Positions 7,283-25,745 of a DNA stretch of 64,000 nucleotides are shown here, piece after piece. This DNA is from Stenotrophomonas maltophilia (GTDB taxonomy: Bacteria > Pseudomonadota > Gammaproteobacteria > Xanthomonadales > Xanthomonadaceae). Location of the stretch: assembly GCA_002387845.1 (NCBI GenBank), contig DGLB01000074.1, positions 52,081 through 116,080 of the forward strand, in the 5' to 3' direction. Positions within the stretch are counted from its first letter, which is position 1. Every line of letters starts with the position of its first letter. The notes below the pieces were generated by a model, which did not search any database, was not told the DNA's origin, and was given only the letters and a program-made list of their open reading frames with translations. Made by a program: the position numbers and the translations under genes.

Positions 7283-7361
7283 GGTACTCCATCAGCACGC
7301 CAAATCGCGCACAGCAGCCAGGCAACGCCCGGCGACAGGGAAAACCCGCACTTCCAGGCTG

Positions 7362-8699: not shown

Positions 8700-8855
8700 G
8701 CGTCACCTTCACGGAAAGGTATCCGGGCGGAGTCTCCTGCTCAGCGCTACCCGGCGTGCCGCCCCACGCCGGAGTCCACCACCGGGCCATGGGAGGGCAG
8801 GGTGGGTTGTGAAAAGAACAACGCGGGTTCAACCCGCCAACGGCCATGCGGCAGG

Positions 8856-8890
8856 CAACGAAAAAGGCCGCTGCGATGCAGCGGCCTTCA
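8856..8890 (-). terminator. Rho-independent terminator downstream of the NlpC/P60 gene (minus strand)
   Basis: Stem GGCCGCTGC-gat-GCAGCGGCC, followed on the minus strand by TTTTTCGTT. Confidence 0.6.
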
Positions 8891-8916
8891 GGATTCAGGT
8901 GCGAAGCAAACGCCGG

Positions 8917-9753: not shown

Positions 9754-9821
9754 ATTTCGTTAAATTTTCGTTTAACTAGGCGTGATGCTTGTCACACTTT
9801 GCGACCTTTCCCCTGTTCAGC

Positions 9822-10361: not shown

Positions 10362-10470
10362 GATGTCCGGATAATGCGCGGCCTTGGAAGTCGCCATGAT
10401 GGCGGCGTAACCGGCGGGCGACAACCCGTCCCACCCGTCTGCCCCGGCAGCCCCAGCACAAGAGTTCCGT

Positions 10471-10950
10471 ATGAAGATCGCAAAAGACAGTGTCGTCCGC
10501 TTCCATTACACCGTGGCCGAACAGGGCCAGGACCCGATCGAAAGCTCGAAGGACCGTGAGCCGCTGGCGATCCTGATCGGCCATGGCAACATCATTCCGG
10601 GCCTGGAAAACGCCATGATGGACCAGGAAGCCGGTGCCAGCTTCGAGGTTGACGTCAAGGCCGCTGACGCCTACGGCGAGCGCCGCGAAGGCCTGACCCA
10701 GCGCGTGCCGAAGAAGCACTTCGGCAATGCCAAGCTGGTCCCGGGCCAGCAGGTCGTGCTGCAGACCAATTTCGGTCCGCGCGCGGTCACCGTTGAAAAG
10801 GTCGGCATGAGCGTGGTCGACGTTGACCTGAACCACCCGATGGCCGGCAAGGACCTGCACTTCTCGGTGGAGATCGTGGACGTGCGCGAAGCCCAGGCTG
10901 AAGAGCTGGAGCACGGCCACGTGCACGGCGACGGCGGTCACCAGCACTAA
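10471..10950 (+). CDS. slyD: FKBP-type peptidyl-prolyl cis-trans isomerase SlyD with His-rich metal-binding tail
   Basis: MKIAKDSVVRFHYT...ILIGHGNIIPGLENAMMDQEAG (FKBP fold with IF insertion). C-terminus HGHVHGDGGHQH. Confidence 0.85.
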   Translation: MKIAKDSVVRFHYTVAEQGQDPIESSKDREPLAILIGHGNIIPGLENAMMDQEAGASFEVDVKAADAYGERREGLTQRVPKKHFGNAKLVPGQQVVLQTNFGPRAVTVEKVGMSVVDVDLNHPMAGKDLHFSVEIVDVREAQAEELEHGHVHGDGGHQH

Positions 10951-10958
10951 GCCGATGC

Positions 10959-11083
10959 TGCCGGGCAAGCCCGGCACTACGGTGGGTTGCTGAATGTAGA
11001 GCCGGGCTTGCCCGGCTGCTTTCTGAATGTAGAGCCGGGCTTGCCCGGCTGCTTTTCGGGTTGCCGGGCAAGCCCGGCACTAC
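10959..11083. repeat. Cluster of four SMAG-type REP palindromes (two minus-orientation copies flanking two direct plus-orientation copies)
   Basis: tgccgggcaagcccggcactac (10959-10980), tgtagagccgggcttgcccggctg (10995-11018 and 11028-11051), ttgccgggcaagcccggcactac (11061-11083). These match the GTAG-containing palindromes characteristic of Stenotrophomonas maltophilia. Confidence 0.85.
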
Positions 11084-11106
11084 CCGCCCCGGTCCCCGAG
11101 AGCCCT

Positions 11107-12339
11107 GTGAACCCAGTAGCTTCTCCCCTGCAGCCGGTTGCCGTCGGCGACCGCATCGAGGTCATCGACATCCTGCGCGGGGTGGCCCTGCTGGGCATCC
11201 TGTTGATGAACATGGAGGCGCTGAGCGGTCCGCTGGACCTGGCCTTCACCGGTATCGACCCGCACTGGCAAGGCGCTGACCGCTGGGCGGACGCATTGAT
11301 CTATGTGCTGGTGCAGGGCAAGTTCTTCACCCTGTTCTCGCTGCTGTTCGGTGCCGGCTTCGCGATCATGGCGCAGCGCGCCGACGCAGCGCGGCGTGAC
11401 TTCACTCCGTTCTATCTGCGCCGCAGCGCCGGTCTGCTGCTGATCGGGCTGTGCCATGCCCTGCTGGTGTGGTCTGGCGACATCCTGGTGCTGTACGCGC
11501 TGATGTCGTTGCCGCTGCTCGCGTTCCGCGAGGCACCGCCCCGCTGGCTGCCCGCGATGGGGGTGCTCACCTATCTGTTTGCATCCGTACTGATGGTCGG
11601 CATGGGCCTGCTGGTCGGCATCGCCGCGCAGGCGGATCCGGCCGCCAGCGCCATGGCCGACGCCGCCGCCGCCGGGCAACGGGCAATCGAACTGCAGCGA
11701 CAGGCGTACGCACACGGCAGTTGGACTGACGCGCTGCTGCAACGTGCGCACGACCTGCGGGTCAACCTGGGCGGCATGCTGGTGGTGGGGCCGGAGGTGC
11801 TGGGCATGTTCCTGATCGGGGCCGGGTTTGCCCGCAGCGGCGCGCTCACAACCCCCGAACGGTTTCCGCGCCTGTACGGCTGCCTGCGCTGGGGCGCCTG
11901 GCCGGCAGGGCTGGTGCTGATGATCATCAGCGCGTGCTGGGTGCCGTACGTCGCCCCGGGTACGTTCACCCCGGCCAGTGGATTCGCCTACGCCCTGTCA
12001 TCGGTAGCGTCACTGCTGATGTGCCTGGGCTACCTGGCGTGGATCGTGCATGCACGCGCGCATCTGCACTGGCTGGCACCGATGGGACGCATGGCGCTCA
12101 CCCAGTACATTGTGCAGTCGCTGGTGGGCACCTGGGTGTTTTACGGCTACGGGCTGGGGGCATTCGAAAGCCTGCCACGGCTGTGGCAGATTCCTTTCGC
12201 ACTGGGGTTGTTCGCGCTGCAGGTGCTGTTCGCACACGCCTGGCTGCGGCATTTCCGTTTCGGTCCGTTGGAATGGGTATGGCGTGGGATGACCTATGGG
12301 CGCTGGCCGCCGTTGCGTCGCACCGCTGGCACGCACTGA
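11107..12339 (+). CDS. DUF418/DUF1624-family polytopic membrane protein (YeiB-like)
   Basis: IDILRGVALLGILLMNMEALSGP...LFGAGFAIMAQR resembles DUF418/heparan N-acetyltransferase-like membrane proteins. Start inferred as GTG 11107, after the REP cluster (GAGAG upstream). The longer ORF from 10987 would be translated through the repeats. Confidence 0.55.
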   Translation: MNPVASPLQPVAVGDRIEVIDILRGVALLGILLMNMEALSGPLDLAFTGIDPHWQGADRWADALIYVLVQGKFFTLFSLLFGAGFAIMAQRADAARRDFTPFYLRRSAGLLLIGLCHALLVWSGDILVLYALMSLPLLAFREAPPRWLPAMGVLTYLFASVLMVGMGLLVGIAAQADPAASAMADAAAAGQRAIELQRQAYAHGSWTDALLQRAHDLRVNLGGMLVVGPEVLGMFLIGAGFARSGALTTPERFPRLYGCLRWGAWPAGLVLMIISACWVPYVAPGTFTPASGFAYALSSVASLLMCLGYLAWIVHARAHLHWLAPMGRMALTQYIVQSLVGTWVFYGYGLGAFESLPRLWQIPFALGLFALQVLFAHAWLRHFRFGPLEWVWRGMTYGRWPPLRRTAGTH

Positions 12340-12411
12340 TGCACACACTCACGCCGGGCGTGCCCCGACCCATGGCATGCTGCCCGCGCCATTTCTGGTT
12401 GGATCTGTTCG

Positions 12412-13767
12412 ATGAGCATGCAATACGACTATGACCTGATCGTGCTGGGCGGCGGCTCCGGTGGTCTTGCCGCCGCGTTCCGCGCCGCCCAGCATGGCTG
12501 CCGCGTGGCCATCCTCGAGCCCGGCGAACTCGGCGGCACCTGCGTCAACGTGGGCTGCGTACCGAAGAAGGCGATGTGGCTGGCGGCCGATCTCTCCGAG
12601 CGGATCGGGCTGGCAGCGGCGCTGGGGTTCGAGGTGCCGGCTCGTCCTGCGCTGGACTGGAAGGAACTGGTGGTGCACCGGCAGGCGTACATCGCCAACA
12701 TCCACACCAGTTACCTCAAGCGCCTCAACGACAATGGCGTGGTCCGCGTGCCGCGTAAAGGCCGCCTGATCGACGCGCACACCGTGGAGTGCAGCGACGG
12801 CATCCGCATCAGCGGCGCGCACATTCTGATCGCCACCGGTGCGCATCCGCAGCGTCCGGACATTCCTGGCGCCGAGCTCGGCAAGGTATCGGACGATTTC
12901 TTCCATCTGTGCAGCGCGCCGGAACAGGTGGCGATTGTCGGCGGTGGTTACATCGCGGTGGAACTGGCCGGCCTGCTGCAGGCGCTGGGCAGCCGGGTGA
13001 CGTTGCTGGTCCGGGGCGACCGTCTGCTCGAGCGCTTCGATGCCGAACTGACCGCGCAGCTGGCCGACAACCTGTGCCACCAGGGCGTCAAGGTGCATTT
13101 CAATTACCGTCTGCGTGAACTGCGCCGTGACGGCGACGCAGTGGTCGCGTATGGCCACGACGGCCCAGGCGATGGCCGTTTCGACGAGGTGTTCTTCGCG
13201 ACCGGTCGCCGTGGCAACAGTGCCGGCCTGGGGCTGGAAGCGTTGGGCGTCGTGGTCGGCGACAAGGGCGAGGTCGACGTCGATGCCTGGCAGACCACCG
13301 CCGTGCCCAGCGTGCACGCAGTGGGCGATATTGCCGGCAAGGTCGGGTTGACCCCGGTGGCCATTGCCGCTGCGCGCAAGCTGATGGACCGGCTGTTCGG
13401 CGGCCAGCCGCACGCGAAAATGGATTACGAGAACGTGGCCAGCGTGGTGTTCTCGCATCCGGCGCTGGGCGCGGTCGGGCTGACCGAGGAAGAGGCGCGT
13501 GCGCGCTTTGATGATGTCCGCGTGTACCGCAGCAACTTCCGCCCGATGCTCCAGGCCTTGGCCAACGGCAGTCAGCGCAGCCTGTTCAAGCTGGTCTGCG
13601 CCGGCCCGGATGAGCGCGTGGTCGGCGTCCATCTGCTCGGTGACGGAGCCGACGAAATCCTGCAGGGGTTCGCCGTGGCGGTGAAGATGGGGGCCACCAA
13701 ATCGTGCTTCGACGATACCGTGGCCATCCATCCGACGAGTGCGGAAGAAGTCGTGTTGATGCGATGA
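12412..13767 (+). CDS. gor: Glutathione-disulfide reductase
   Basis: MSMQYDYDLIVLGGGSGG...GGTCVNVGCVPKK redox-active disulfide motif. Full-length class I pyridine nucleotide-disulfide oxidoreductase. C-terminal HPT.EE motif. Confidence 0.85.
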   Translation: MSMQYDYDLIVLGGGSGGLAAAFRAAQHGCRVAILEPGELGGTCVNVGCVPKKAMWLAADLSERIGLAAALGFEVPARPALDWKELVVHRQAYIANIHTSYLKRLNDNGVVRVPRKGRLIDAHTVECSDGIRISGAHILIATGAHPQRPDIPGAELGKVSDDFFHLCSAPEQVAIVGGGYIAVELAGLLQALGSRVTLLVRGDRLLERFDAELTAQLADNLCHQGVKVHFNYRLRELRRDGDAVVAYGHDGPGDGRFDEVFFATGRRGNSAGLGLEALGVVVGDKGEVDVDAWQTTAVPSVHAVGDIAGKVGLTPVAIAAARKLMDRLFGGQPHAKMDYENVASVVFSHPALGAVGLTEEEARARFDDVRVYRSNFRPMLQALANGSQRSLFKLVCAGPDERVVGVHLLGDGADEILQGFAVAVKMGATKSCFDDTVAIHPTSAEEVVLMR

Positions 13768-14672
13768 CCCCGGTCGCCACTTCCTCTCCCCGCATTGCGG
13801 CCTCCGGCATCGCCCTGGCGGCCATCGGCGCGATCACCGCGTCCGGCAAGGCGGTGATCGTCAAACTTGGCTACCGCCAGGGCGTGGACGCGACCACGCT
13901 GCTGGCGCTGCGCATGCTGATGGCGTTTCCGCTGTTCGCGCTGCTGGCGGTGTGGTCGGCGCGCCGCGCCACGGCGCTGTCCTGGGCCGATCGTGGCCGC
14001 GTGCTGTGGTTGGGCTTTACCGGTTACTACCTGTCCAGCCTGCTGGATTTCCAGGGGCTGCAGTACATCAGCGTGACCCTGGAACGACTGATCCTGTATC
14101 TCAATCCGACCCTGGTGCTGCTGATCAGCCTGGTGCTGCTGAAGAAGAAGCCCGGGCGCTGGCAGGTGGCGGCGCTGGTGCTCAGTTATCTGGGCGTGCT
14201 GCTGGCCTTTGGCCACGACCTGCAGCTGGAGGGCGGGCGCATCCTGCTGGGCAGCGCACTGGTGTTCGGCAGCGCGCTGAGTTACGCGCTTTACCTGTTC
14301 GGCAGTGGGCAGGTGGTGGCGCGCATCGGGGCCATCCGCCTGACCGCCTATGCCAGCTGCGTGGCCTGTGTGCTGTGCGTGCTGCATTTTGCCGTGCTGC
14401 ATCCGCTGCCCGCGCTGTTGCAGGCCCCGGTGCCGGTGTACTGGCTGTCGTTGATCAACGCGACGGTCTGCACCGTGCTGCCGGTGGCGGCGATCATGCT
14501 GGCGGTGAAGCGCATCGGCTCGTCGTTGGCCGCGCAGGTCGGTATGCTCGGCCCGGTATCCACCATCGTGATGAGTCTATGGCTGCTCGACGAACCCATG
14601 GGCCCCTGGCAGATTCTGGGGACCGCGCTGGTGCTGGTCGGCGTACTGCTGGTCAGCCGCGCACGCGCGTGA
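13764..14672 (+). CDS. DMT-superfamily (EamA-like) transporter
   Basis: Ten predicted TM helices with two EamA-like halves. Start ATG overlaps the gor stop (ATGA at 13764-13767). Confidence 0.7.
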   Translation: MTPVATSSPRIAASGIALAAIGAITASGKAVIVKLGYRQGVDATTLLALRMLMAFPLFALLAVWSARRATALSWADRGRVLWLGFTGYYLSSLLDFQGLQYISVTLERLILYLNPTLVLLISLVLLKKKPGRWQVAALVLSYLGVLLAFGHDLQLEGGRILLGSALVFGSALSYALYLFGSGQVVARIGAIRLTAYASCVACVLCVLHFAVLHPLPALLQAPVPVYWLSLINATVCTVLPVAAIMLAVKRIGSSLAAQVGMLGPVSTIVMSLWLLDEPMGPWQILGTALVLVGVLLVSRARA

Positions 14673-15034
14673 AGCCGACTGCCGCGGCTGAAGAGGACAC
14701 CGCCGCCCAGGCCCGCGAGCGCATTCTGGCGGTGATCCGCGCCATCCCGCGCGGGCAGGTGATGGGCTACGGCCAGGTTGCGGCGAAGGCCGGCCTGCCC
14801 GGGCGTGCACGGCTGACTGCGCGCGTGCTGGGCATGAATGACGACCCCGAACTGCCCTGGCATCGGGTGCTGCGTTCGGACGGGCGCATCGCCATGCCGG
14901 AGGGCTCGCGCGGCTGGCGCGAGCAGAACCAGCGGCTGCGGGCCGAAGGTGTGGTGATGGAGGGCGGGCGGGTCAAGCACATGCCACGTGGTGGCGGAGA
15001 TGACCTGGATGCGGCGGTGTGGGGGCCGGGTTGA
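14669..15034 (+). CDS. Alkyltransferase-like (ATL) protein: MGMT-family DNA-binding domain with Trp in place of the acceptor Cys
   Basis: GQVMGYGQVAAKAGLPGRARLTARVLGMN...LPWHRVLRSDGRI matches the Ogt/Ada C-terminal domain but has PWHRV instead of PCHRV. GTG start overlaps the EamA stop (GTGA). Confidence 0.6.
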   Translation: MKPTAAAEEDTAAQARERILAVIRAIPRGQVMGYGQVAAKAGLPGRARLTARVLGMNDDPELPWHRVLRSDGRIAMPEGSRGWREQNQRLRAEGVVMEGGRVKHMPRGGGDDLDAAVWGPG

Positions 15035-15040
15035 GCGATT

Positions 15041-15745
15041 ATGATGGGGGCGGTTCCAAAGGATGCCTCCATGTTTCCGCGACTGCCCACTGTCACCAAG
15101 GCCCTGCTGATCGCCAACGCGGTGCTGTTCCTGCTGCAGCAGCCGTTCCTGCTCGGCTACGGCACGTTCGAGCCGTTCATGCTGCAGCCGCTGCGCAGCT
15201 TCGACCCGTTCTCGCCCGGCGGTAACTTCCAGCCCTGGCAGTTGCTGACCTACGGGTTCCTGCACGGCAACCTGATGCACCTGCTGTTCAACATGCTGGC
15301 GCTCTTCATGTTCGGTTCGCCGCTGGAACAGACCTGGGGCGAGAAGCGCTTTCTGATTTTCTACCTGGTCTGCGTGGCGGGCGCCGGCCTGTGTCAGCTG
15401 GCGGTCGGCGCGATGATGGTCGACCCGGCTCCGGTGCTGGGTGCCTCGGGGGGTGTGTTTGGTCTGTTGTTGGCGTACGGCATGCTGTTCCCGAACCAGC
15501 GGGTGATGCTGCTGTTCCCGCCGATTCCGATGAAGGCGCGCACCTTCGTGATCGTGATCGGCCTGACCGAACTGGTGTTTGGCGCGACCAGCTGGCAGCC
15601 GGGCATCGCGCATTTCGCGCATCTGGGCGGCATGCTGTTCGGCTGGCTGCTGATCCGTTACTGGCGCGGGCAGCCGCCGTTCACGCGCCGACCGCCGGGC
15701 GGCGGGCCGCCGAAGCGGCCGAACCATCTGCGCAGCGTCAAGTGA
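15041..15745 (+). CDS. Rhomboid-family intramembrane serine protease
   Basis: GFLHGNLMHLLFNMLALFMFG, GASGGVFGLLLAY (catalytic Ser), AHFAHLGGMLFGWL (catalytic His). The start may be the downstream Met at 15071. Confidence 0.8.
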   Translation: MMGAVPKDASMFPRLPTVTKALLIANAVLFLLQQPFLLGYGTFEPFMLQPLRSFDPFSPGGNFQPWQLLTYGFLHGNLMHLLFNMLALFMFGSPLEQTWGEKRFLIFYLVCVAGAGLCQLAVGAMMVDPAPVLGASGGVFGLLLAYGMLFPNQRVMLLFPPIPMKARTFVIVIGLTELVFGATSWQPGIAHFAHLGGMLFGWLLIRYWRGQPPFTRRPPGGGPPKRPNHLRSVK

Positions 15746-15810: not shown

Positions 15811-17466
15811 ATGAAGATTCTCATCCTGGGTGGCTACGGCGTTTTCGGAGGCCGCCTGGCGCGGCTGCTCGCAGACCTCAACGGGCTCGAACTGCTGGTC
15901 TGCGGGCGCAATCTTTCCGCCGCCGAAGCCTTTTGTGCGTCCTATGTGGGGGGCCCCCACGTGCGCCCGCTTCGCATCGAACGCGCCAGCATCGCCACCG
16001 CGCTCGACCGCGAGCGCCCGGACCTGGTCGTGGACGCCTCCGGGCCGTTCCAGGACTATGGCGACAACGGCTACAGCGTCATTGAAGCCTGCATTGCCGC
16101 ACGCATCGATTACCTTGACTTCGCCGACGCCGCCGATTTCGTCTTTGGTGTTTCGCGGTTCGATGCTGCCGCCAAAGCCGCGGGCATCTTCGTACTCTCG
16201 GGCGTCAGCAGCTTCCCGGTCCTTACCGCCGCGGTACTGCGCGAGATGGCGAAGACCATGGAGGTGGGTTCGGTCGAGGGCGGCATTGCGCCGTCTCCCT
16301 ATGCCGGCATCGGCCTGAACGTCATGCGCGCGGTGGTCGGCTACGCCGGTTCGCCGGTGAAGCTGCAGCGCGACGGCCGCGCGGGGCAGGGTATCGGGCT
16401 GGCCGAAAGCCGGCGCTTCACCGTCGCCGTACCGGGCCGCCTGCCGCTGCGCAACCTGCACTTCTCGCTGGTGGATGTGCCCGATCTGCAGGTGCTGCCG
16501 CCAGAGCATCCCACCCTGACCGACATCTGGATGGGCGCGGGGCCGGTGCCGGAGGTTCTGCACCGGGTGCTGAATCTGCTGGCCAAGGCGCGTGCACGCT
16601 TCCATCTGCCGTCGCTGGAGCCGCTGTCGCCGCTGTTCTACCGGGTGTTGAACCTGATGAAGTTCGGCGAGCACCGCGGCGGCATGTATGTCCGTGCACG
16701 CGGCCAACATGCAGGTACGCCGGTGGAACTGAGCTGGCATCTGCTGGCTGAGGGCGATGACGGTCCGTACATTCCGTCAATGGCCATCGAGGCGGTGATC
16801 CGCAAGCTGGTGGGCGGTGAGCATCCCGCCGATGGTGCGCGGCCGGCCACGCACGCGCTGGAGCTGGCGGACTACGAAGCGTTGTTTGCGGGCCGTTCGA
16901 TCCACACCGGTTTCCGCCGCGAGCAGCCGGACGCCTCGCTGTATCCGCAGCTGCTGGGCAGCGCGTTCGGTGTGCTGCCGCCGCAGGTGCAGGCGCTGCA
17001 CCGTGGCAGCGAGGCGCGGCGCTGGAGTGGACGAGCGGATATCCGACGCGGCACGGGACTCATGGCGCGCGCCATCGCGGCGCTGATCGGATTTCCGAAG
17101 GCGGGAACGGATGTGCCGGTCAGCGTGGCGTTCACGCCGGAGCAGGGCGGGGAGCGATGGACACGCGATTTCGGAGGCCGGCGGTTCTCGTCATGGCAGC
17201 GGCGTGGACGCGGGCGCAGCGAGTACCTGCTGGTGGAGCGGTTCGGGGTGATGGACGTGGCGTTGGCGCTGGTGGTGGAGGGCGAACGGTTGCATCTGGT
17301 GCCGCGTCGCTGGTTCCTGCTCGGTGTGCCGATGCCGGGTTTCCTGTTGCCGCGCGGCACCACCTTTGAAACCGAGACCGAGGGCAAGTTCGTGTTCGAA
17401 GTGGAGATTGCCGCGCCGTTGATCGGTTTGATCGTCGGCTACCGCGGACAGTTGCTTCCTGCGTAG
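15811..17466 (+). CDS. Saccharopine dehydrogenase-like NAD(P)-binding protein fused to a DUF4166-like C-terminal domain
   Basis: MKILILGGYGVFGGRLARLL Rossmann motif. Long C-terminal extension as in Sacchrp_dh_NADP + DUF4166 proteins. Confidence 0.6.
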   Translation: MKILILGGYGVFGGRLARLLADLNGLELLVCGRNLSAAEAFCASYVGGPHVRPLRIERASIATALDRERPDLVVDASGPFQDYGDNGYSVIEACIAARIDYLDFADAADFVFGVSRFDAAAKAAGIFVLSGVSSFPVLTAAVLREMAKTMEVGSVEGGIAPSPYAGIGLNVMRAVVGYAGSPVKLQRDGRAGQGIGLAESRRFTVAVPGRLPLRNLHFSLVDVPDLQVLPPEHPTLTDIWMGAGPVPEVLHRVLNLLAKARARFHLPSLEPLSPLFYRVLNLMKFGEHRGGMYVRARGQHAGTPVELSWHLLAEGDDGPYIPSMAIEAVIRKLVGGEHPADGARPATHALELADYEALFAGRSIHTGFRREQPDASLYPQLLGSAFGVLPPQVQALHRGSEARRWSGRADIRRGTGLMARAIAALIGFPKAGTDVPVSVAFTPEQGGERWTRDFGGRRFSSWQRRGRGRSEYLLVERFGVMDVALALVVEGERLHLVPRRWFLLGVPMPGFLLPRGTTFETETEGKFVFEVEIAAPLIGLIVGYRGQLLPA

Positions 17467-17507
17467 ACAATCAAACAAAAAGGGCACCCGAAGGTGCCCT
17501 TTGTCGG

Positions 17508-19523
17508 TCAACGCCAGATCTTGATCTGGTCGTTGTCCACCCGCTGCATCGGCTGGCCCGGCTTGCAGGTGAACGTGGCTCCGAACGCCGGCAGGTTGCT
17601 CAGCGGCCCATTGGTGCGCCAGCGACCCGGTGCGCGGATGTCGCTGGTCAGGCGCTGCGCGGCCTCGTTCGGCGACAGCTGCTGCGGCCACAGCGCCGCC
17701 CAGGCGCGGAAGAAGCCCTGCTGCTGGGCCGGCTTGGCCTTCGGCTCCTGCGCCAGGTATGCGGCCCAGGCCAGCTCCACACCGGCGATGTCGGCCAGGT
17801 TTTCTTCCTGGGTGAGCGAACCATTCACCTTGGCCCCCTTCACGCCGGGGAAGTCATAGGCGCTGTACTGCGCGGCGACGCGGCTGCCGAGCAGGGTCCA
17901 GGCGGTCTTGTCGGCTGGCGTCCACCAGCTGCGCAGTTCGCCCTTGGCATCCACCAGGGCACCCTTGGCATCGACGGCACGGTTCAGTTCGTGCGCGACC
18001 AGTGCACCGAAACTGCCGAACTTGTCGGCGGCATCGGCCTTGGCGTTGAACACCGGGCCCTGCAGCGCGGCGGCCGTGACGATCAGGCGGTTCTGGGCGA
18101 TGTCGTAGGCCAGCGACGGCTGCTGCGGCAGCACGTCCCAGCGGCGGTCAGCGTTGCCCTTGCCGATCCGCTTCATTTCCTCGCGATGGCGCCAAGTGGA
18201 GGCGATCAGCATGTTGCCGCCGAAGCTGCCACGGCCCATCGGCTGCACGCTGTAGTCCAGGTCGCGCAGCGGCGTGCCGATCTCGATCTTCAGCGCGGCC
18301 AGCTTGGCCTGCGCCTCGCTCTTGGCTTCGGCACTCAGCCAACTGCTGTTCTTGACCGCGTCGATCTGCACCTCGCGCACCTTGTCGACGATCCAGGCCG
18401 CCTGGCGGCGGTCTTCGGCGGACAGATGACGGGCGGCGTATTCACGGCCGACCATCGGGCCGGCGGCCACGTTGATGGCGTTGAGCACCTGCTCCCAGCG
18501 CGCCGGGGCCAGGGTTTCGCCACGGATCACGCGGCCGCGGAACTCAAACTCCGCATCGCGGTAGGCCTTGGACAGGTACGGGGCCATCGCATCGCCCACG
18601 CGCCAGCGCAGGTAGGACTTCCACTGGTCCGGCTTGATCCGGGTGACCATGCCGTCCAGCGCCTTGAACAGGTTCGGGTCGGCCAGCGAGACCAGGTCGT
18701 CGTTGACGCCCTGCACCTTCAGGAACGCATCCAGCTGCAGGTTCTTGTAGCGGCTGTTGAGGTCCTTGGTGGAGATCGGCGCGTAGTTGTTGAACGGGTT
18801 GTTGATCCCGGCCAGCGACTGCGCGTTGCGCGCCAGTTCGGTTTCCAGCGCGATCACCGCCTGTGCTTCAGCATCCAGCTTGGCCGTCGGGGTGCCGGTC
18901 AGGGCCAGGATCTGCTTGACGTAGTTGCGGTAGCGGCCCATCAGCGCCACCGTGTCGGCGTCAGTGCGGGTATAGAAGGCCGGGTCCGGAAGACCCATGC
19001 CACCCTGCATGAAGTAGCCGATATGACGATCCAGCGCCTTCAGGTCCACGTCCGGGGCGAAGTTGAAGGCCACCGGAATGCCGACCTGGTGCAGGGCGGC
19101 GATCGAGGCCGGCACGTCCTTGGCCTTCTTGATGGCGTTGATGCGGTCCAGCAGCGGGGCGATCGGATTGGAGCCGTCGGCTTCCACCGCCGCTTCATCC
19201 AGGCCGCTGGCCCAGAAATCACCCAGCAGCTTCTGGGTGTTGCCCTGCGGCGCCTTCATCGCCGCGTCCAGCAGTTCACGCTGCTGCAGGCGGGTGCGGT
19301 CGGCCAGCTGGCCCAGCGCGGTGGTCGCGCCGGTCTGCGGCACCGGGTTGGCCTTCAGCCAGCCAGCGTTGGTGGCATCGTAGAAGTCAGTGCACTGTGC
19401 GCTGGCGGCCGGGGTACGGGCGGCCTTCTTCTTCGGCGCGGCGGAGGCATCGGTGATCACCAGGGACGCCAGCCCCAGACCCAGGGCAATGGCAAGCGGA
19501 CGAAGGTTGGGCATGCGAAACAA
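17508..19523 (-). CDS. M13-family (neprilysin/PepO-like) metallopeptidase homolog with degenerate zinc site (HELNR instead of HExxH; NAYY replaced by LAYD)
   Basis: Collinear with the adjacent canonical M13 enzyme. Has signal peptide and retains ENLADIAG (third zinc-ligand region). The HExxH second His is Arg (VAHELNRAVD). Confidence 0.7.
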   Translation of the reverse strand: MFRMPNLRPLAIALGLGLASLVITDASAAPKKKAARTPAASAQCTDFYDATNAGWLKANPVPQTGATTALGQLADRTRLQQRELLDAAMKAPQGNTQKLLGDFWASGLDEAAVEADGSNPIAPLLDRINAIKKAKDVPASIAALHQVGIPVAFNFAPDVDLKALDRHIGYFMQGGMGLPDPAFYTRTDADTVALMGRYRNYVKQILALTGTPTAKLDAEAQAVIALETELARNAQSLAGINNPFNNYAPISTKDLNSRYKNLQLDAFLKVQGVNDDLVSLADPNLFKALDGMVTRIKPDQWKSYLRWRVGDAMAPYLSKAYRDAEFEFRGRVIRGETLAPARWEQVLNAINVAAGPMVGREYAARHLSAEDRRQAAWIVDKVREVQIDAVKNSSWLSAEAKSEAQAKLAALKIEIGTPLRDLDYSVQPMGRGSFGGNMLIASTWRHREEMKRIGKGNADRRWDVLPQQPSLAYDIAQNRLIVTAAALQGPVFNAKADAADKFGSFGALVAHELNRAVDAKGALVDAKGELRSWWTPADKTAWTLLGSRVAAQYSAYDFPGVKGAKVNGSLTQEENLADIAGVELAWAAYLAQEPKAKPAQQQGFFRAWAALWPQQLSPNEAAQRLTSDIRAPGRWRTNGPLSNLPAFGATFTCKPGQPMQRVDNDQIKIWR

Positions 19524-19584
19524 ATCCGGTCGGATTGAAGACCGCAGAACTATACCAAGCCCGCATGAAAAGGCGGCATCGGCC

Positions 19585-19614
19585 CAAATACAAAGGCCCG
19601 GGAATCCCGGGCCT
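19585..19614 (-). terminator. Rho-independent terminator between the two M13 genes (for the upstream, canonical M13 gene)
   Basis: GGCCCGGG-aat-CCCGGGCC stem, followed on the minus strand by TTTGTATTTGGG. Confidence 0.6.
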
Positions 19615-19640
19615 CTGCATTCATACAGACCTGAAAGCGC

Positions 19641-21755
19641 TTACCAGATCACAACCTGTTGGTCGCCGGTGCGCACCATCGGCGCGCCGGGCTTGCACTC
19701 GAACGCGGCGGCGAAGGCCGGCAGGTTCGACGGCGCGCCCATCGCGCGGAACTGCGCCGGGGCGTGCGGGTCGGTGGCCAGGCGGACCTTGGCGTTTTCC
19801 GGGGTGTACTTGGTACGCCACACCGTCGCCCAGTTGAAGAAGAAGCGCTGGTCACGGCTGAAGCCGTCGACCTTGGCGTCTTCCTTGCCGGCCGACGCCT
19901 TCTGCAGCGCGTCGTAGGCGGTGGCCAGGCCACCCAGGTCGGCGATGTTTTCGCCCAGGGTCAGCTTGCCGTTGACCGCCTGCTCGCCCACCTTGTAACC
20001 GTCGAACTGCTTGACCAGCTTGCCGGTCAGGCCGCTGAAGTTCTTGGTGTCGGCGTCGGTCCACCAGTTCTCGAAGTTGCCGGTCGGCCCGAAGCGGCTG
20101 CCCTGGTCATCGTAACCGTGGGTCATTTCGTGGCCGATCACCGCGCCGATGCCGCCGTAGTTCAGCGCGTCGTCGGCCTTCGGGTCGAAGAACGGCGGCT
20201 GCAGGATGGCGGCCGGGAACACGATCTCGTTCTGCAGCGGGTTGTAGTACGCGTTCACCGTCTGCGGGGTCATGCCCCACTCGGTCTTGTCGACCGGCTT
20301 GCCGATCTTGGACAGGGCGAACTTGTAGTTGAACTCGTTGGCGGCGCGCACGTTGCCGAAGTAGCTGTCGCGCTGGGTGCTCAGGCCGCTCCAGTCACGC
20401 CACTTGTCCGGGTAACCGATCTTCGGGGTGAAGGTTTCCCACTTGGCAATCGCCTTGGCCTTGGTCTCGTCGCTCATCCAGGTCAGGCCCTGGATACGCT
20501 CCTTGAGCGAGGCGGCCAGGTTCTTGACCAGCTCTTCCATCTTGGCCTTGGATTCGGGCGAGAAGGCGACCTTCACGTACAGCTGGCCGAACGCTTCGCC
20601 GGCGTCGTTCTCGATGGTGCCCAGCACGCGCTTCCAGCGCGGCTTCTGTTCCTTCTGGCCGTTCAGGGTCTTGCCGTAGAAGTTGTAGCTCTCATCGGCG
20701 AAGGCATCGGCCAGGTACGGCGAGGCCGCGTCCACAGTGTGGAAGCGCAGGTAGGAACGCCACACCGACGGGTCGGTGTCGCCCAGCGCCTTGCTCACTT
20801 CCTGGTGGAAGGTCGGAATGGCGAGCGAGAACTTCTCCGGCGCGGCGATGCCCTGGGCCTTGAAGAACTCGGTCCAGCTGAAGTTCGGGGTCAGCTTGTC
20901 GGCGTCGGCCACGCTGACCGGGTTGTAGTACAGCGAGACGTCGCGCGAAAGCTGCTCGCTGGACTTGGAGGCCTTGGCCAGGCGGGTTTCGAACTTCACC
21001 ACGTCCGCCGCCTGCTTGGCAGCGTCGGCCGCGGCCACGCCGGACAGTTCCAGCACCTTGGCCACGTGGGCCTCATAGGCCTTGAGCTTGTCGGCGTTCT
21101 TGGCGTCGGTGTAGTAGGTGGTGTCCGGCAGGCCCAGGCCGCCCTGGCTGGCGTAGGCGATGTTCTGCGAGGAGTTCTTGAAGTCCGCTTCCGGGCCGAA
21201 GCCGAACAGCACGTTCTGGCCCTTGGCCGCGGAGCTGCGCAGGTAGTCGGCGATTGCCTCCTTGCTCTGCAGACCGTCGATGGCGGTCAGGTCGGCCTTG
21301 ATCGGCTCGATGCCCTGCGCGTTGATCTTGGCCTCGTCCATGCCGGTGGCCCAGAAGTCGCCGACGATCTTTTCGATGCCGGTCGGGTTCTTCACCGCGG
21401 CCACCTGTTCGGCCAGCTGGTGCTGCACGGCGACCGAGCGCTCGTCCAGAATGGTGAACGCGCCCCAGCTGGTGCGGTCGCCCGGAATTTCATTGGCGGC
21501 CAGCCACTTGCTGTTCACGTAATCGCCGAACGCGGTGCAGGCGTCCAGGTTCTTGTCCAGGTCGGACGGGTGGAAGGCGTTGTAGGCCGGCAGCTTGGCT
21601 TCGTCCAGCTTGAACGCGGTTTCCGCCGGGGCGGCCGTCGGCGTGGCGGTGGAGGCCGCGCTGTCCGTAGCCGGGGTGTCAGTCTTGCCGCAGCCGACCA
21701 GCGCGGCCGAAACGGCCAGGGTCAGCAGGACGATCTTGGGAGTGCGTGCGATCAC
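19641..21755 (-). CDS. M13-family zinc metallopeptidase lipoprotein (endothelin-converting enzyme/PepO-like), canonical active site
   Basis: VIGHEMTHGYDDQG (HExxH), ENIADLGG, NAYYNP. Lipobox LVGC. Start assigned to GTG 21755, preceded by GGAGG with an 8-nt spacer; the 1179-aa ORF upstream extension is non-coding. Confidence 0.8.
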   Translation of the reverse strand: MIARTPKIVLLTLAVSAALVGCGKTDTPATDSAASTATPTAAPAETAFKLDEAKLPAYNAFHPSDLDKNLDACTAFGDYVNSKWLAANEIPGDRTSWGAFTILDERSVAVQHQLAEQVAAVKNPTGIEKIVGDFWATGMDEAKINAQGIEPIKADLTAIDGLQSKEAIADYLRSSAAKGQNVLFGFGPEADFKNSSQNIAYASQGGLGLPDTTYYTDAKNADKLKAYEAHVAKVLELSGVAAADAAKQAADVVKFETRLAKASKSSEQLSRDVSLYYNPVSVADADKLTPNFSWTEFFKAQGIAAPEKFSLAIPTFHQEVSKALGDTDPSVWRSYLRFHTVDAASPYLADAFADESYNFYGKTLNGQKEQKPRWKRVLGTIENDAGEAFGQLYVKVAFSPESKAKMEELVKNLAASLKERIQGLTWMSDETKAKAIAKWETFTPKIGYPDKWRDWSGLSTQRDSYFGNVRAANEFNYKFALSKIGKPVDKTEWGMTPQTVNAYYNPLQNEIVFPAAILQPPFFDPKADDALNYGGIGAVIGHEMTHGYDDQGSRFGPTGNFENWWTDADTKNFSGLTGKLVKQFDGYKVGEQAVNGKLTLGENIADLGGLATAYDALQKASAGKEDAKVDGFSRDQRFFFNWATVWRTKYTPENAKVRLATDPHAPAQFRAMGAPSNLPAFAAAFECKPGAPMVRTGDQQVVIW

Positions 21756-21935
21756 GTAGTTGGCCTCCAGGCCGAAGATGCGTGCATGGGTTGCTCCTTG
21801 GCGGAGCGTGGGGCAGACGATACGCCGCTGGCCCGGCCTGCAAGGGTGTCGAAGGTCATGGGCGAAGGCAAGCGGCGGCATGTGAACGCGGCGCGCGGGG
21901 CGACAGCTGCGGCCCGGGCGGTGTATACAGCCACA

Positions 21936-23531
21936 ATGAGCAAAGCCACGACGGGTGTGTGGGACGCGGTCATCATCGGCGGCGGGCATAACGGCCTGGT
22001 CTGCGCGGCCTACCTGGCCCGGGCAGGAAAGCGCGTATTGGTGCTGGAGCGCCGTGGCGTGGTCGGCGGGGCGGCGGTGACCGAGGAGTTCCACCCTGGT
22101 TTCCGCAATTCGGTGGCCTCTTATACGGTGTCGCTGCTGCAGCCCAAGGTCATTGCCGACCTGGACCTGGCCGTGCATGGGTTGCGCGTGGTTCCGCGCC
22201 GGATCAACAACTTCCTGCCGCTGGAGGGAGATTACCTGCTGGCAGGTCCGGGGCAGACCGCGGCGCAGGTTGCGCGTTTCTCCGCGCGTGATGCGGCCCG
22301 GCTGCCGGTGTTCGAGCAGCGCCTGGAGGCCTTTGCCGATGTGCTGCGCGATACCGCGCTGCAGCCCCCTCCGAACGTGGGCGAGGGCAGTTGGCTGCGG
22401 CAGCTGCCCGAGTTGTGGCGGGCGGGGCAGCTGGGTCGCCGCCTGCACGGCCTGGAGCCGGCGCTGCGGCAGGAACTGCTGGATCTGTTCACCATCTCCG
22501 CGTCGGAGTATCTGGACCGGTGGTTTGACAGTGAGCCGATCAAGGCGCTGTTCGGGTTTGATGGCATCGTCGGCAACTACGCCAGCCCGCATGCACCGGG
22601 CACGGCGTATGTACTGCTGCATCACGCCTTTGGCGAAAGCAACGGGGTGAAAGGGGCATGGGGTCATGCCATTGGTGGCATGGGCGCGATCACCCAGGCA
22701 ATGGCGCGCGCTGCAGAGGCCGCCGGCGCGCAGATTCGTGTGACTGCCGGGGTACGTCGCGTGCGGGTCGAGCAGGGGCATGCGGTGGGCGTGGAAACCG
22801 AAGCCGGCGAGCTGATCCGTGCACGCGCGGTGGTGGCCAACGTCAATCCCAAGCTGCTTTACGAACGCCTGCTGGCACCGGAACACGTGCCGCCCGCTAC
22901 CCGTGAACGCATGGCCAACTGGCGCTGTGCCTCCGGCACCTTCCGGATGAACGTGGCGCTGTCGGCGCTGCCCGATTTCACGGTGCTGCCAGGCGCGGGC
23001 GACCATCTCACCGCCGGCATCATCATCGCGCCCACGCTGGCCTACATGGACCGTGCTTACAGCGATGCACGCGAATACGGTTGGTCGCGCGCACCGATTG
23101 TGGAAATGCTGATTCCCAGCACGCTGGACGACTCGCTCGCTCCGCCCGGGCAGCATGTCGCCAGCCTGTTCTGCCAGCACGTCGCACCGGTGCTGTCAGG
23201 TGGGCGCAGCTGGGATGACCATCGCGAGGAGGTGGCGGACCTGATGATCGCCACGGTGGAGCAGCACGCGCCCGGTTTCAGCCAGCTGGTGCTCGGACGG
23301 CAGGTGTTGAGCCCGCTGGATCTGGAGCGTACGTTCGGGCTGATCGGCGGCGACATCTTCCACGGCGCACTCAGCCTCAACCAGTTGTTCAGTGCACGGC
23401 CGATGCTGGGGCAGGCGGACTATCGTGGGGCGCTGCCGGGGTTGTATCTGTGTGGTTCGGGCACGCACCCGGGCGGCGGCGTAACCGGGGCACCCGGGCA
23501 CAATGCGGCGCGGGTGATCCTGGCGGATTGA
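21936..23531 (+). CDS. FAD/NAD(P)-dependent oxidoreductase, phytoene-desaturase (CrtI)-like
   Basis: MSKATTGVWDAVIIGGGHNGLVCAAYLARAG dinucleotide-binding motif. About 530 aa, typical of CrtI-family amine oxidase-like proteins. The upstream part of the 1290-aa ORF is antisense to the M13 gene and is rejected. Confidence 0.7.
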   Translation: MSKATTGVWDAVIIGGGHNGLVCAAYLARAGKRVLVLERRGVVGGAAVTEEFHPGFRNSVASYTVSLLQPKVIADLDLAVHGLRVVPRRINNFLPLEGDYLLAGPGQTAAQVARFSARDAARLPVFEQRLEAFADVLRDTALQPPPNVGEGSWLRQLPELWRAGQLGRRLHGLEPALRQELLDLFTISASEYLDRWFDSEPIKALFGFDGIVGNYASPHAPGTAYVLLHHAFGESNGVKGAWGHAIGGMGAITQAMARAAEAAGAQIRVTAGVRRVRVEQGHAVGVETEAGELIRARAVVANVNPKLLYERLLAPEHVPPATRERMANWRCASGTFRMNVALSALPDFTVLPGAGDHLTAGIIIAPTLAYMDRAYSDAREYGWSRAPIVEMLIPSTLDDSLAPPGQHVASLFCQHVAPVLSGGRSWDDHREEVADLMIATVEQHAPGFSQLVLGRQVLSPLDLERTFGLIGGDIFHGALSLNQLFSARPMLGQADYRGALPGLYLCGSGTHPGGGVTGAPGHNAARVILAD

Positions 23532-23615: not shown

Positions 23616-25649
23616 CTACAACCCGCCGCCACCACACCCCTTGGTGAGGTAATCATCAATCAGCTTCAACTGGTCACCCATGATCGCCCGCGTCCATGCC
23701 GGCCCATGTGCGTAATCGGCGATGGCGTGATACTCCACCGGCTGGCCGGAGTTCTTGGCCTTGGCCACGAACCATTCCGACTGTTCGATCGGCACGGTAC
23801 GGTCGCGATCACCGTGATAGACCATCAACGGAATCTTCATCTCACCGGCCTTGTCCAGCGGATTCAGGCCGTCGACCGTCTTGGCCTGCGCCTGGCGGAA
23901 GAACGGGTTGGTGTAGAACCGCGACCAGATCTTCTTGATGTCGGACACGCCGGCACCGGCAATCGCGCACTTGTACAGGCCGTTCGGGCGCACCGAGGCG
24001 GCGAAGGCCGAATAGCCACCGTAGGAGAAGCCGAACATGGCGATATGGCCGGGCTGGGCGATCTTCTGATCGATCATCCACTTGGCACCATCATCCTTGT
24101 CGTCCTGCATCTTCTGGCCCCACTCGGCGTCGCCCGCCATCCACAGCTTCCGGCTCCAATCCGCCGAGCCACGGAACTGCGGACGCAATACCGCCATGCA
24201 GCGCGAGGCCATCAGCGGCACCCACATCGAGCCGTCGAAGTCCATGCCGTCTCGTGCCCACGGGCCACCATGCGGATGCACGACCGCCTTCCACGGGCCG
24301 GCCCCGCACAGTTCGGTGTTCGGGGTGGTCAGGAAGGCGGGAATGTCCAGGCCATCGCGGGCCTTGTAGTACACCAGCTTGGTATCACCCAGCGCGGCTG
24401 GGTCGATCTGCGGGTAGGACTTGGCCAGCAGCTCCAGCTTGCCGTCCTTGAGCAGGTAGTACTCCGGCGCATTGGCCGGACCGGAAACCGCCAGCACGAA
24501 GGTTTTGAAGTCGGCGCTGTAATCGAGTACGCGCACCGACTTGCCGGTGTCCGCCTGGGTGGTGGCCTGCTGACCGGTTGCCGGGTCCACCAGGGTCACG
24601 GCGCTGGACTGGATCCCCAATGCCTGGCGAACGCCTTGGTTCAGCCCCTTCATGGCCGGGTGGGTCCACTCGACCTCGTTCTCACGCGGGCCGCTGTAGC
24701 CCACGCCGAGCAGCGCACCGAACGGCACGCCTTCGACACCCTTGTAATGGTTCACGTATACCGAGCCGGCATTGAAGAACTTGTGCTCGTACAGCACTTC
24801 CTTCTGCTTGCGGGCGGCGATGTCGTATTCGTAGATGACGGTCTTGTCGCGACCGACATTGCTCTGGATGAACGCAATGTTCGGGTCATCGGCAAAGCCG
24901 ACCACCTGGCTGATATCGCGGTCTTTCACGTGCGAGCGGAAGTGCTCTTCCCAGGCATTGGTGGCCGGGTTGCGGAACTCCGTGGAGACATACGCACCGA
25001 CGCTGTCCACGTCTTGGCGCAGGCGTGCGCGCAGTTCGCTGTTGAGGTCGGTGAGATAGCCGGCCACGCGCTCTTCGGTCTTCTGGATGCGCTGGGAGGT
25101 GAAGCTGCGCAGGTTGACCTTGTAGACGTCGCCCGAGTTGCTGCCAGCGCCGTTGATCACCAGGATGTGGTCGGGGTCGTTGGGCAGCGTGTCCAGCACG
25201 GTGGCGTTGGAAAGCGCCTGCTCCAGTTCTTCACTGCGGCTGGTGGCACGCGGAACGCTGATCGGTTCCTTCCACTGCTTGCCTTCGGTGTCGGTGATGA
25301 AGAACTTGCTGATGAAGGTCTTGTTGACCCGGTCGGTGCGCAGGTCGTACGGCTGCCACAAGGTGACGGCCAGCAGCCCGTTCTTGATGAAACGGACACT
25401 CTGGAACTTCATGCGGCCCGCACCAATGGTGGTGGGGGCGGCGGAAAGGTCGGCGGTCTTCCAGACCAGGATGACCCGTTCTTCACCGCGGGCCTGCAGG
25501 CCGGCGATCTGGGTGCCGTCGGGCGACACGGAAAGGCTGGAGAGGGCCGGGAATGCGGCCAGCTGCTCGATCGTGGGCACTGCCGGCTTGGCGTTGAGCT
25601 GCAGCGGCGCAGCCACGGCCAGCGCGGCTAACAGAAGGTATTGCTTCAT
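23616..25649 (-). CDS. S9-family serine peptidase (prolyl oligopeptidase/dipeptidyl aminopeptidase-like) with N-terminal beta-propeller, secreted
   Basis: Catalytic serine nucleophile motif GFSYGGY, Asp in HGDRDRTVP, His in YAHG. Signal peptide MKQYLLLAALAVAAPLQLNA. Start placed at 25649. Confidence 0.8.
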   Translation of the reverse strand: MKQYLLLAALAVAAPLQLNAKPAVPTIEQLAAFPALSSLSVSPDGTQIAGLQARGEERVILVWKTADLSAAPTTIGAGRMKFQSVRFIKNGLLAVTLWQPYDLRTDRVNKTFISKFFITDTEGKQWKEPISVPRATSRSEELEQALSNATVLDTLPNDPDHILVINGAGSNSGDVYKVNLRSFTSQRIQKTEERVAGYLTDLNSELRARLRQDVDSVGAYVSTEFRNPATNAWEEHFRSHVKDRDISQVVGFADDPNIAFIQSNVGRDKTVIYEYDIAARKQKEVLYEHKFFNAGSVYVNHYKGVEGVPFGALLGVGYSGPRENEVEWTHPAMKGLNQGVRQALGIQSSAVTLVDPATGQQATTQADTGKSVRVLDYSADFKTFVLAVSGPANAPEYYLLKDGKLELLAKSYPQIDPAALGDTKLVYYKARDGLDIPAFLTTPNTELCGAGPWKAVVHPHGGPWARDGMDFDGSMWVPLMASRCMAVLRPQFRGSADWSRKLWMAGDAEWGQKMQDDKDDGAKWMIDQKIAQPGHIAMFGFSYGGYSAFAASVRPNGLYKCAIAGAGVSDIKKIWSRFYTNPFFRQAQAKTVDGLNPLDKAGEMKIPLMVYHGDRDRTVPIEQSEWFVAKAKNSGQPVEYHAIADYAHGPAWTRAIMGDQLKLIDDYLTKGCGGGGL

Positions 25650-25745
25650 GCGACGTCTCACTGTGTCCATGCAATGGGAGGGCAGGCCTGTGCGCTGCCC
25701 AAAACGCAGCCGCCGCCCCGAAGGGCGGCGGCCGGTGACGCAGGC

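Follow-up and report, generated by a model that had tools for sequence, protein, structure and literature searches.

A 64,000-nucleotide stretch of the Stenotrophomonas maltophilia contig DGLB01000074.1 (assembly GCA_002387845.1, positions 52,081 to 116,080, G+C content of 66%; hereafter the window) carries two neighbouring genes of the M13 metallopeptidase family, here called A and B. Judging from its active-site residues, the protein encoded by gene B is very probably inactive as a zinc peptidase, i.e. a pseudopeptidase, and it belongs to a clade in which catalytic residues have been lost many times. We favour the reading, at a probability of roughly 0.55, that B is a selected, exported and soluble protein with an M13 fold that has no catalytic function and serves as a binder or decoy alongside the membrane-tethered, active A.

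Catalytic residues and their conservation in Stenotrophomonas

A and B are head-to-tail open reading frames (ORFs) on the minus strand (coordinates of all features are collected in Table 1). A first-pass annotation of this DNA, made from the letters alone, had recognized a tandem of M13 paralogs here, which the ORFs and the Pfam matches bear out; it had also put the intact lipoprotein copy downstream, but on the minus strand, to which both genes belong, A comes upstream of B. Peptidase_M13_N and Peptidase_M13 together span the full length of both proteins, with E-values of 4e-115 and 8e-70 for A, and of 3.7e-85 (PF05649) and 2.5e-41 (PF01431) for B; the corresponding scores of B (287.1 bits with a cut-off of 32, and 142 bits with a cut-off of 24.5) make it a member of M13 by homology. 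The NCBIfam model NF052391 (PepO equivalog, cut-off of 1000 bits) is not reached by either protein (361.5 bits for A and 187.5 bits for B); by this measure neither of them is a lactococcal-type PepO equivalog, and the model is silent on activity. The true PepO/Zmp1-type enzyme of the window is predicted to be A. Gene B was taken to start with TTG at 19523 (an in-frame ATG at 19514 is equally plausible), and its protein is 98–99% identical to those of the genomes of Stenotrophomonas sp. PS02289 and S. maltophilia STE2.

Residues of B were placed by BLASTP alignment to A and by HMMER alignments to the solved structures of TfPepO and Zmp1, and are compared below in the numbering of neprilysin (NEP). 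The roles of the residues are those derived from mutagenesis of NEP and of Shewanella PepS (PMC4701951 and references therein), according to which mutating the equivalent residues abolishes the activity of these enzymes (Devault 1988 and Dion 1993, cited there). A has the motifs VNAYY, HEMTH..D, ENIADLGG and DPHAP..FR, and keeps the equivalents of H583, E584, H587, D590, E646, D650, N542, Ala543, H711 and Arg717. The HExxH motif of B reads HELNR: the first zinc ligand H583 (H511 in B), the catalytic Glu E584 (E512) and the His-orienting Asp D590 (D518) are all kept, and the second zinc ligand H587 is lost, its place being taken by Arg515. The third zinc ligand E646 and Asp650 are kept in the sequence ENLADIAG (E574 and D578, respectively). 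At the substrate-binding strand, where V-N-A-Y-Y of A is aligned with P-S-L-A-Y of B, the substrate-binding Asn N542 is replaced by Ser470 and Ala543 by Leu471. The transition-state His H711 (H654 of PepS) is also lost, to R630 (DxHxP is changed to DIRAP), and Arg717 is kept as R636, six residues after R630. Of the features of a competent M13 enzyme, B thus lacks HExxH, N542 and H711 and retains ENxAD (E646 plus Asp650).

Most of what the first-pass annotation had said of these motifs holds. It had described HEMTH, ENIADLGG and NAYY of A as intact, as they are, and B as keeping the fold and the ENxADxxG region, which agrees with ENLADIAG (E574 and D578) and with the M13 structure model described below. 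It was right that Arg replaces the second zinc-ligand His, but the codon is CGT and not the product of the CAC-to-CGC change that it gave; it was also right that the Asn of NAYY is gone, but its replacement LAYD is one residue out of register, as NAYY aligns with S470 to Y473. The alignment with the M13 family that it proposed as a check recovered the losses at H587 and N542, and added the loss at H711, which had been missed.

That HELNR is a sequencing or assembly error, or that B was inactivated recently and is on its way to being lost, has practically no chance of being true, and nothing was found in its favour. HExxR is found in all of the 120 closest homologues of B (77–91% identity, 90%-identity clusters), and in all of the 71 species-level orthologues that come from a genome scan of 80 loci (essentially all Stenotrophomonas species; both genes could be extracted intact from 71), so that the Arg is present in all 191 orthologous sequences, from independent assemblies. 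Among the 71 orthologues it is encoded by CGT (36), CGC (33), CGA (1) and CGG (1), and the use of four synonymous codons indicates that selection acts on the amino acid. The B ORF is intact in 79 of the 80 loci, and the median ratio of nonsynonymous to synonymous substitution rates (dN/dS; pairwise Nei–Gojobori, 250 species pairs) comes to 0.22 in B against 0.24 in A: purifying selection on B is as strong as that on the active enzyme. The clade of B is, moreover, as old as the family. An error or a pseudogene was therefore rejected, given the invariant Arg, the synonymous codons and a dN/dS of about 0.22. The conservation of the HELNR variant among orthologues was another check that the first-pass annotation had called for, with an Arg confined to this strain as the outcome that would undo its reading; that refutation fails, and its claim that B is a catalytically dead pseudo-peptidase is supported, as far as sequences can show it, by the losses at H587, N542 and H711, the Arg shared by all orthologues, the dN/dS and the pattern of the clade; the binding, regulatory or decoy role that it suggested for B may hold and is taken up below.

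Constraint differs among positions. H511, E512, R515, D518, D578 and R636 are invariant in the 71 B orthologues (48% of the columns are invariant as a background) and E574 is present in 69 of them; the H711 equivalent drifts (R in 49, L in 18, M in 2 and E in 2). The A orthologues keep HExxHxxD, NAYY, ENIAD and DxHxPxxxR in 71 cases out of 71. B thus has the attributes of a non-peptidase homologue: an essential residue is missing, the defect is conserved in its orthologues and the gene is under purifying selection. Two loci titled 'Bacillus subtilis' (L014) and 'Nocardiopsis yanglingensis' (L027) carry Stenotrophomonas-type B genes that are 90–91% identical; these are probably contaminated assemblies.

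The B clade in Lysobacteraceae and the predicted fold of B

An HMMER search run exhaustively over 1.84 billion representatives (50% identity) and a neighbour-joining tree place B in a distinct M13 clade. Its marks are P-x-(L/I/V)-x-Y where VNAYY would stand, a C-terminus that is one residue longer (...IWR) and a very variable HExxH. Degenerate sites of the clade include HELSQ, NQLSH, HQLSR, RELSR, QQMSQ and AQQVAI, and intact ones include HELGH, HELTH and HELSH. According to the profile searches and source names, the clade spans the Lysobacteraceae (Lysobacter, Luteimonas, Thermomonas, Vulcaniibacterium, Agrilutibacter, Novilysobacter and Cognatilysobacter), with Arenimonas as its most degenerate branch. 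With 33% identity over 640 residues (BLASTP), A and B are old paralogs and not products of a recent duplication; a recent tandem duplicate was rejected on this identity and on the separate conservation of each lineage across the family. B arose by an ancient duplication that predates the radiation of the Lysobacteraceae. Identities between genera are 52–77% for A-type and 41–73% for B-type proteins (about 33–37% between Arenimonas and B), from which B evolves faster than A over long time scales.

We counted the retention of each residue over 152 cluster representatives of the B clade and 113 of canonical M13. The catalytic residues are each kept in 98–100% of the canonical representatives (H587 is His in 99%), and in the B clade they are kept in 85% (H583), 87% (E584), 67% (E646), 49% (H587; Arg, at 34%, is the commonest replacement) and 41% (H711). 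D590 is kept in 94% of the B clade and 98% of canonical M13, and D650 and R717 in 100% of both. All five catalytic residues are present in 27 out of 152 members of the B clade versus 110 out of 113 canonical ones (at least one is missing in 125 versus 3), and more than 55 different combinations of catalytic residues occur within the clade. Among the B-clade members whose site is otherwise intact none has Asn at the N542 position, which is A, S, D, L or V in the clade. Changes were counted by Fitch parsimony on a neighbour-joining tree whose alignment had the catalytic columns masked and whose root was set on A-type proteins. A single change suffices for the presence or absence of N542, and at least 13 changes are needed for H583, 5 for E584, 10 for H587, 13 for E646 and 20 for H711 (these counts are rough, and reversals are counted too).

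The Arenimonas branch (n = 80) shows how far the replacement can go: Gln is at the positions of H583, E584 and E646 in 73–77 out of 80 sequences (the site reads Q-Q-x-x-L), His is absent from the H587 position in 79, D590 is gone, and Phe or Tyr mostly takes the H711 position, where 19 out of 80 still have His; the equivalents of D650 and R717 are nevertheless found in 80 out of 80. Highly conserved substitutions specific to the clade cluster near the old active-site strand and bring in positive charge, for example R460/R461 (for T/E), R479 (for Glu), P469, L471, D474 and V491.

The simplest reading of this pattern is that selection for catalysis ended when the clade arose or shortly afterwards, with the loss of N542, and that the equivalents of D590, D650 and R717 were kept because they hold the fold together. 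The N542 equivalent disappeared a single time, at the root of the B lineage. Constraint then relaxed on the zinc ligands, on the catalytic Glu and on the transition-state His, which were replaced independently many times; the fold-stabilizing equivalents of D590, D650 and R717 stayed, and the state fixed in Stenotrophomonas is H-E-x-x-R plus E574. R515 probably fills the vacant metal site, paired with E512 and E574, given that no other replacement is as common as Arg in the clade and that zinc ligands of the Drosophila protein Nepl15 are likewise replaced by Arg.

An AlphaFold2 model of B, built from a 43-sequence alignment of the clade, has a mean predicted local distance difference test score of 91.8 and a predicted template modelling (TM) score of 0.88, with disorder limited to residues 1–33 (the signal peptide and the basic tail). 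The top 19 matches of the model in a Foldseek search against PDB are all M13 proteins (E-values down to 2e-41, TM scores of 0.73–0.86), and no structure outside M13 reaches significance; TfPepO (9eyg), Zmp1, PgPepO, L. rhamnosus PepO, neprilysin and ECE-1 are the significant ones; B is thus predicted to retain the two-domain neprilysin fold. Residues 34–671 of the model fit open Zmp1 (6xly) with a TM score of 0.86 and a root-mean-square deviation of 3.1, and open or partly open 7k1v with a TM score of 0.81. The fit to closed, inhibitor-bound Zmp1 (3zuk) has a TM score of 0.78 and a deviation of 4.8, and both neprilysin and 3zuk fit worse than TfPepO and open Zmp1: B may rest in the open state, or this may be an artefact of modelling.

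Genomic context, predicted export and possible roles of B

Table 1. The M13 genes A and B, features within B, their surroundings in the window, and loci of relatives (L numbers are our locus handles)
Feature	Position	Strand	Description or basis
Gene A	21755..19641	minus	704 aa; canonical M13 (PepO-like) lipoprotein, all catalytic motifs intact
Gene B	19523..17508	minus	671 aa; predicted M13-fold pseudopeptidase
B: signal peptide	19440..19523	minus	Sec-type, residues 1-28, ...TDASA/AP, without lipobox Cys; read from the translation
B: N-terminal tail of the mature protein	19395..19439	minus	APKKKAARTPAASAQ; 15 residues, Lys/Ala/Pro-rich, directly before first fold residue C44
B: S470-L471-A472-Y473	18105..18116	minus	at the canonical N-A-Y-Y strand; alignments to A and TfPepO/Zmp1
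B: HELNR (H511, E512, R515)	17979..17993	minus	alignments to A and to solved M13 structures
B: codon CGT of Arg515	17981..17979		
B: ENLADIAG	17781..17804	minus	E574, D578
B: R630	17634..17636	minus	in DIRAP
Terminator between A and B	19585..19622	minus	intrinsic; core GGCCCGGG-AUU-CCCGGGCC, A-rich and U-rich extensions; dG -40.1 kcal/mol, z = -5.4, U tract
Terminator directly after B stop codon	17479..17502	minus	intrinsic; 10-bp stem, 6 G-C pairs, T tract
DUF4166/saccharopine-dehydrogenase-like gene	15811-17466		between rhomboid/MGMT-like pair and B
Rhomboid protease gene	15041-15745	plus	
MGMT-like DNA_binding_1 gene	14579-15034	plus	
FAD-dependent amine-oxidase-like gene	21936-23531	plus	between S9 peptidase gene and A
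S9 (prolyl-oligopeptidase family) peptidase gene	23616-25670	minus	684 aa, exported; two genes upstream of A
L007 (Stenotrophomonas)	2630-5722		1030-aa Oar-like TonB-dependent receptor between A and B
L081			two small genes inserted between A and B
L083	1564-8040		A-type lipoprotein, intact Sec-signal (non-lipoprotein) copy, B-type in tandem
L084 (Lysobacter yananisis)	2239-9016		two intact lipoprotein M13 copies, then B-type
L084 (Lysobacter yananisis)	9342-15579		bpX6-bpX5-bpMoxR, directly downstream of the M13 triplet
L085 (Thermomonas sp. HDW16, CP049872.1)	1-9013		B-type without adjacent A
L086 (Vulcaniibacterium)			A-type lipoprotein, then B-type
L087 (Luteimonas)			A-type and, after one other gene, B-type
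L088 (Arenimonas)			704-aa A-type M13, B-type directly downstream

A is found upstream of B on the same strand in 71 of the 71 Stenotrophomonas loci, usually with a spacer of 120–500 bp, and the first-pass annotation had the two genes separately terminated. The hairpin between them is real, with a folding energy well below background (Table 1), and a hairpin with a T tract occurs in all 66 Stenotrophomonas A–B intergenic regions examined, so that separate termination is a conserved feature; B has a terminator of its own. A sigma-70 consensus scan of positions 17200–22100 gave no promoter-like site, including none for B. Four Stenotrophomonas loci (L007 among them) have a spacer of about 3.5 kb that holds the gene for an Oar-like TonB-dependent receptor, a protein with an N-terminal carboxypeptidase-regulatory-like region and a beta-barrel.

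The arrangement in other genera varies around the same theme (Table 1): a B-type gene almost always comes shortly downstream of one for an intact A-type lipoprotein. With triplets in L083 and L084 repeated duplication at the M13 locus is ongoing. In Thermomonas sp. HDW16 the B gene adjoins those for a PTR2/POT di/tripeptide permease, an OPT oligopeptide transporter and an S9 peptidase, and such a peptide-uptake neighbourhood fits a peptide-related role of B. Genes for a rhomboid protease and an MGMT-like DNA_binding_1 protein (the latter probably alkyltransferase-like) lie beside B on the opposite strand in L081, L083, L085, L086, L088 and the window; as these neighbours are conserved too, the whole region is syntenic and the adjacency of A and B is weak evidence for their coupling. 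In Lysobacter yananisis this pair is replaced by bpX6, bpX5 and bpMoxR, which are of the MoxR-associated ternary-system type. Upstream of A, the window has an exported S9 peptidase gene and, between it and A, an amine-oxidase-like gene dependent on flavin adenine dinucleotide (FAD); envelope peptidases may be loosely clustered near A. PADLOC matched neither A nor B, giving no link to a defence system.

The two proteins differ in their N-termini, as the first-pass annotation had read from the sequence: a plain signal peptide for B and a lipoprotein signal for A. A begins with MIARTPKIVLLTLAVSAALVG/C, a lipobox (ALVG/C22), and a linker of about 50 residues comes next. B is predicted from its signal sequence to be exported, and the layout of n-, h- and c-regions seen in its signal peptide is common to B-type proteins of other genera. 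A connection with effectors of the type IV secretion system of Xanthomonadales (X-T4SS; its X-Tfe effectors can carry M13) was rejected: B has a Sec signal, and it ends at the M13 C-terminus without room for a C-terminal secretion domain. The polybasic tail of mature B, disordered in the AlphaFold2 model, is conserved in kind across genera (comparable tails in B-type proteins of Lysobacter, Thermomonas, Vulcaniibacterium and Luteimonas are AAKKKAAPK, AAKKPAKKAK and AQRRRGR), whereas A carries an acidic linker; the tail could be a contact with the membrane, lipopolysaccharide or peptidoglycan, or a sorting signal. The cores differ in charge as well: that of B is basic, with an isoelectric point (pI) of about 9 (8.8–9.0) in Stenotrophomonas, Lysobacter, Thermomonas and Vulcaniibacterium, and that of A is acidic, with a pI of about 5.6 (5.4–6.2) in the same genera except Thermomonas, for which the analysis recovered no gene of the A type. 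This contrast does not hold in Luteimonas, L081 and L083.

If B is a binder or decoy, its closed M13 capsule would still take up oligopeptides or a related ligand without cleaving them, and the protein would act in soluble form, in the periplasm or outside the cell, beside the membrane-tethered A. Among possible roles we infer the ranking soluble binder or decoy first, direct regulatory partner of A second and binder of a new ligand third; the first place is owed to the capsule that B retains, to the peptide-transport genes next to it in Thermomonas and to the close parallel with insect Nep and Nepl proteins. A wider form of the idea, which is tentative and would lose an even bet, makes the B-type proteins of all Lysobacteraceae periplasmic or secreted M13 receptors or decoys for peptides that, with the lipid-anchored paralog, decide whether a given oligopeptide is broken down, spared or imported, Arg being a surrogate for the metal that keeps the capsule folded. 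If this is true, the B-type proteins would provide the first defined role for an M13 pseudoenzyme from bacteria, and would match the insect Nep/Nepl proteins by convergence. Several points weigh against B as a non-catalytic binder. Its inactivity is one that we infer from residues; the 27 clade members (out of 152) that keep HExxH, E646 and H711 could be active, so that the clade may originally have been a variant in specificity and not a pseudoenzyme; H511, E512, R515 and E574, invariant or nearly so within Stenotrophomonas, could reflect residual or altered chemistry under selection. The strand that binds the peptide backbone (N542/A543) is itself remodelled, to P-x-L-A-Y-D, which argues against canonical peptide binding by B, and the location of B may be either the periplasm or the outside of the cell.

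It is unlikely, if worth keeping in mind, that B is instead a direct protein partner of A, i.e. a regulatory or scaffolding subunit that binds A or an A–substrate complex and tunes its activity or location. The A-then-B order is kept across genera so diverged that their B orthologues are 35–60% identical, the basic core of B is matched by an acidic A in three genera and its polybasic tail by an acidic linker, and precedents are found in a review of pseudopeptidases (PMC11266112); but a terminator separates the genes in 66 out of 66 Stenotrophomonas species, a TonB-dependent receptor gene has come between them in four species, Thermomonas sp. HDW16 has B without an adjacent A, and the charge complementarity fails in the three loci or genera named above. 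The rhomboid and MGMT-like flanks are, besides, just as syntenic, so that the adjacency may be merely historical, and an M13 chain is already a complete two-domain capsule that needs no partner. The charge of B bears also on the idea that it was re-purposed for a non-peptide, probably anionic, ligand of the envelope or environment, with the remodelled basic former active site as its binding site. We hold this to be quite improbable: the clade-specific and often basic substitutions around the old strand (R460, R461 and R479), the preference for Arg (34%) in place of the second His, and the basic core with its Lys-rich tail speak for it, but the Arenimonas branch does not conserve R460, R461 or D474, a basic pI is not universal, and the neighbourhoods examined contain no candidate ligand or linked pathway genes.

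There is, finally, a slim chance that B is still an active peptidase, by way of a non-canonical metal site or a mechanism independent of metal. H511, E512 and E574 are invariant or nearly so within Stenotrophomonas, and 18% of the clade has the full catalytic set. Yet B has lost its transition-state His and its substrate-binding Asn as well as the second zinc ligand, single mutations at the equivalent positions abolish activity in characterized M13 enzymes, sister lineages tolerate the loss of every catalytic residue, and the H711 equivalent drifts freely within the genus. The non-catalytic binder or decoy remains the reading that we prefer.

Significance and comparison with known systems

Databases call all members of the B clade 'M13 family metallopeptidase' or 'putative endopeptidase', which as a statement of activity is probably wrong for most of them. 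Bacterial pseudoenzymes are much less explored than eukaryotic ones, and the clade is a natural experiment that separates the residues of the M13 fold (D590, D650 and R717) from those of its chemistry. B is also tractable, being present in an opportunistic pathogen, S. maltophilia, beside the PepO-like lipoprotein A. The PepO proteins of other pathogens degrade host peptides, so a modulatory role of B could bear on the interaction with the host. We found no description of a bacterial M13 pseudopeptidase in open-access papers and preprints (automatic MEROPS-style flags of 'non-peptidase homologue' may exist), and in the same literature no study of M13 proteins of Stenotrophomonas, Xanthomonas or Lysobacter.

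Among known bacterial enzymes, those of the PepO/Zmp1/PepS kind (TfPepO, 9eyg; PgPepO, 9fma; Mycobacterium tuberculosis Zmp1, 3zuk/6xly; Shewanella PepS) give the best matches to B, both in sequence (E-values of 2e-75 to 5e-65) and in structure (TM scores of 0.78–0.86). B shares with them the two-domain fold and the length, and retains the equivalents of D590, E646, D650 and R717. These enzymes all have HExxH, VNAxY and the transition-state His, whereas B is without the second His, the Asn and the transition-state His.

Metallopeptidase homologues that have no metal site and stand beside, or work with, an active hydrolase are known from M16B heterodimers, the alpha/beta subunits of MPP and the degenerate LytM factors EnvC, NlpD and DipM (M23), which control other hydrolases (PMC11266112, PMC10336132). 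B resembles them in this respect and in its predicted location in the envelope; however, these cases belong to other folds and families, the M13 chain is a self-contained capsule, and A and B are separate transcription units. No evidence of an A–B complex was obtained here.

Inactive M13 homologues are well known from insects and nematodes (Bland et al. 2008, PMC2259306; PMC8223033), and it is here that the closest analogues of B are found. Drosophila has 21 inactive, mostly secreted Nepl proteins and seven active Nep proteins, for the most part membrane-bound ones (PMC8223033). As in these Nepl proteins, B combines a retained M13 fold with lost catalytic motifs, and its inactive state is shared by a whole taxon; as in the Drosophila set, the inactive copy would be soluble or secreted and the active copy membrane-anchored (PMC8223033). 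In Nepl15, for which sequestration of peptides has been proposed, zinc ligands are replaced by Arg, as is the one at R515 of B (PMC7822871). Gone early (Goe) of Drosophila, the sole M13 entry in a 2024 review of pseudopeptidases, lacks all zinc ligands and the catalytic Glu (PMC11266112), whereas in B the catalytic Glu is still there, along with two of the three zinc ligands. Unlike the metazoan Nepl and Goe proteins, B groups with bacterial proteins of the PepO/Zmp1 type; its nearest relatives all come from bacteria, which makes an independent origin the expectation (the trees held no animal sequences). B also differs from Nepl proteins in being encoded in tandem with a lipoprotein paralog and in its predicted Sec-dependent export in a Gram-negative envelope. 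The concept of an M13 pseudopeptidase is thus already known from insects and nematodes, and B is a bacterial variant of it; what is new here is an ancient, selected and family-wide defect, a mosaic decay that follows the single loss of an Asn, and the pairing with an active lipoprotein paralog.

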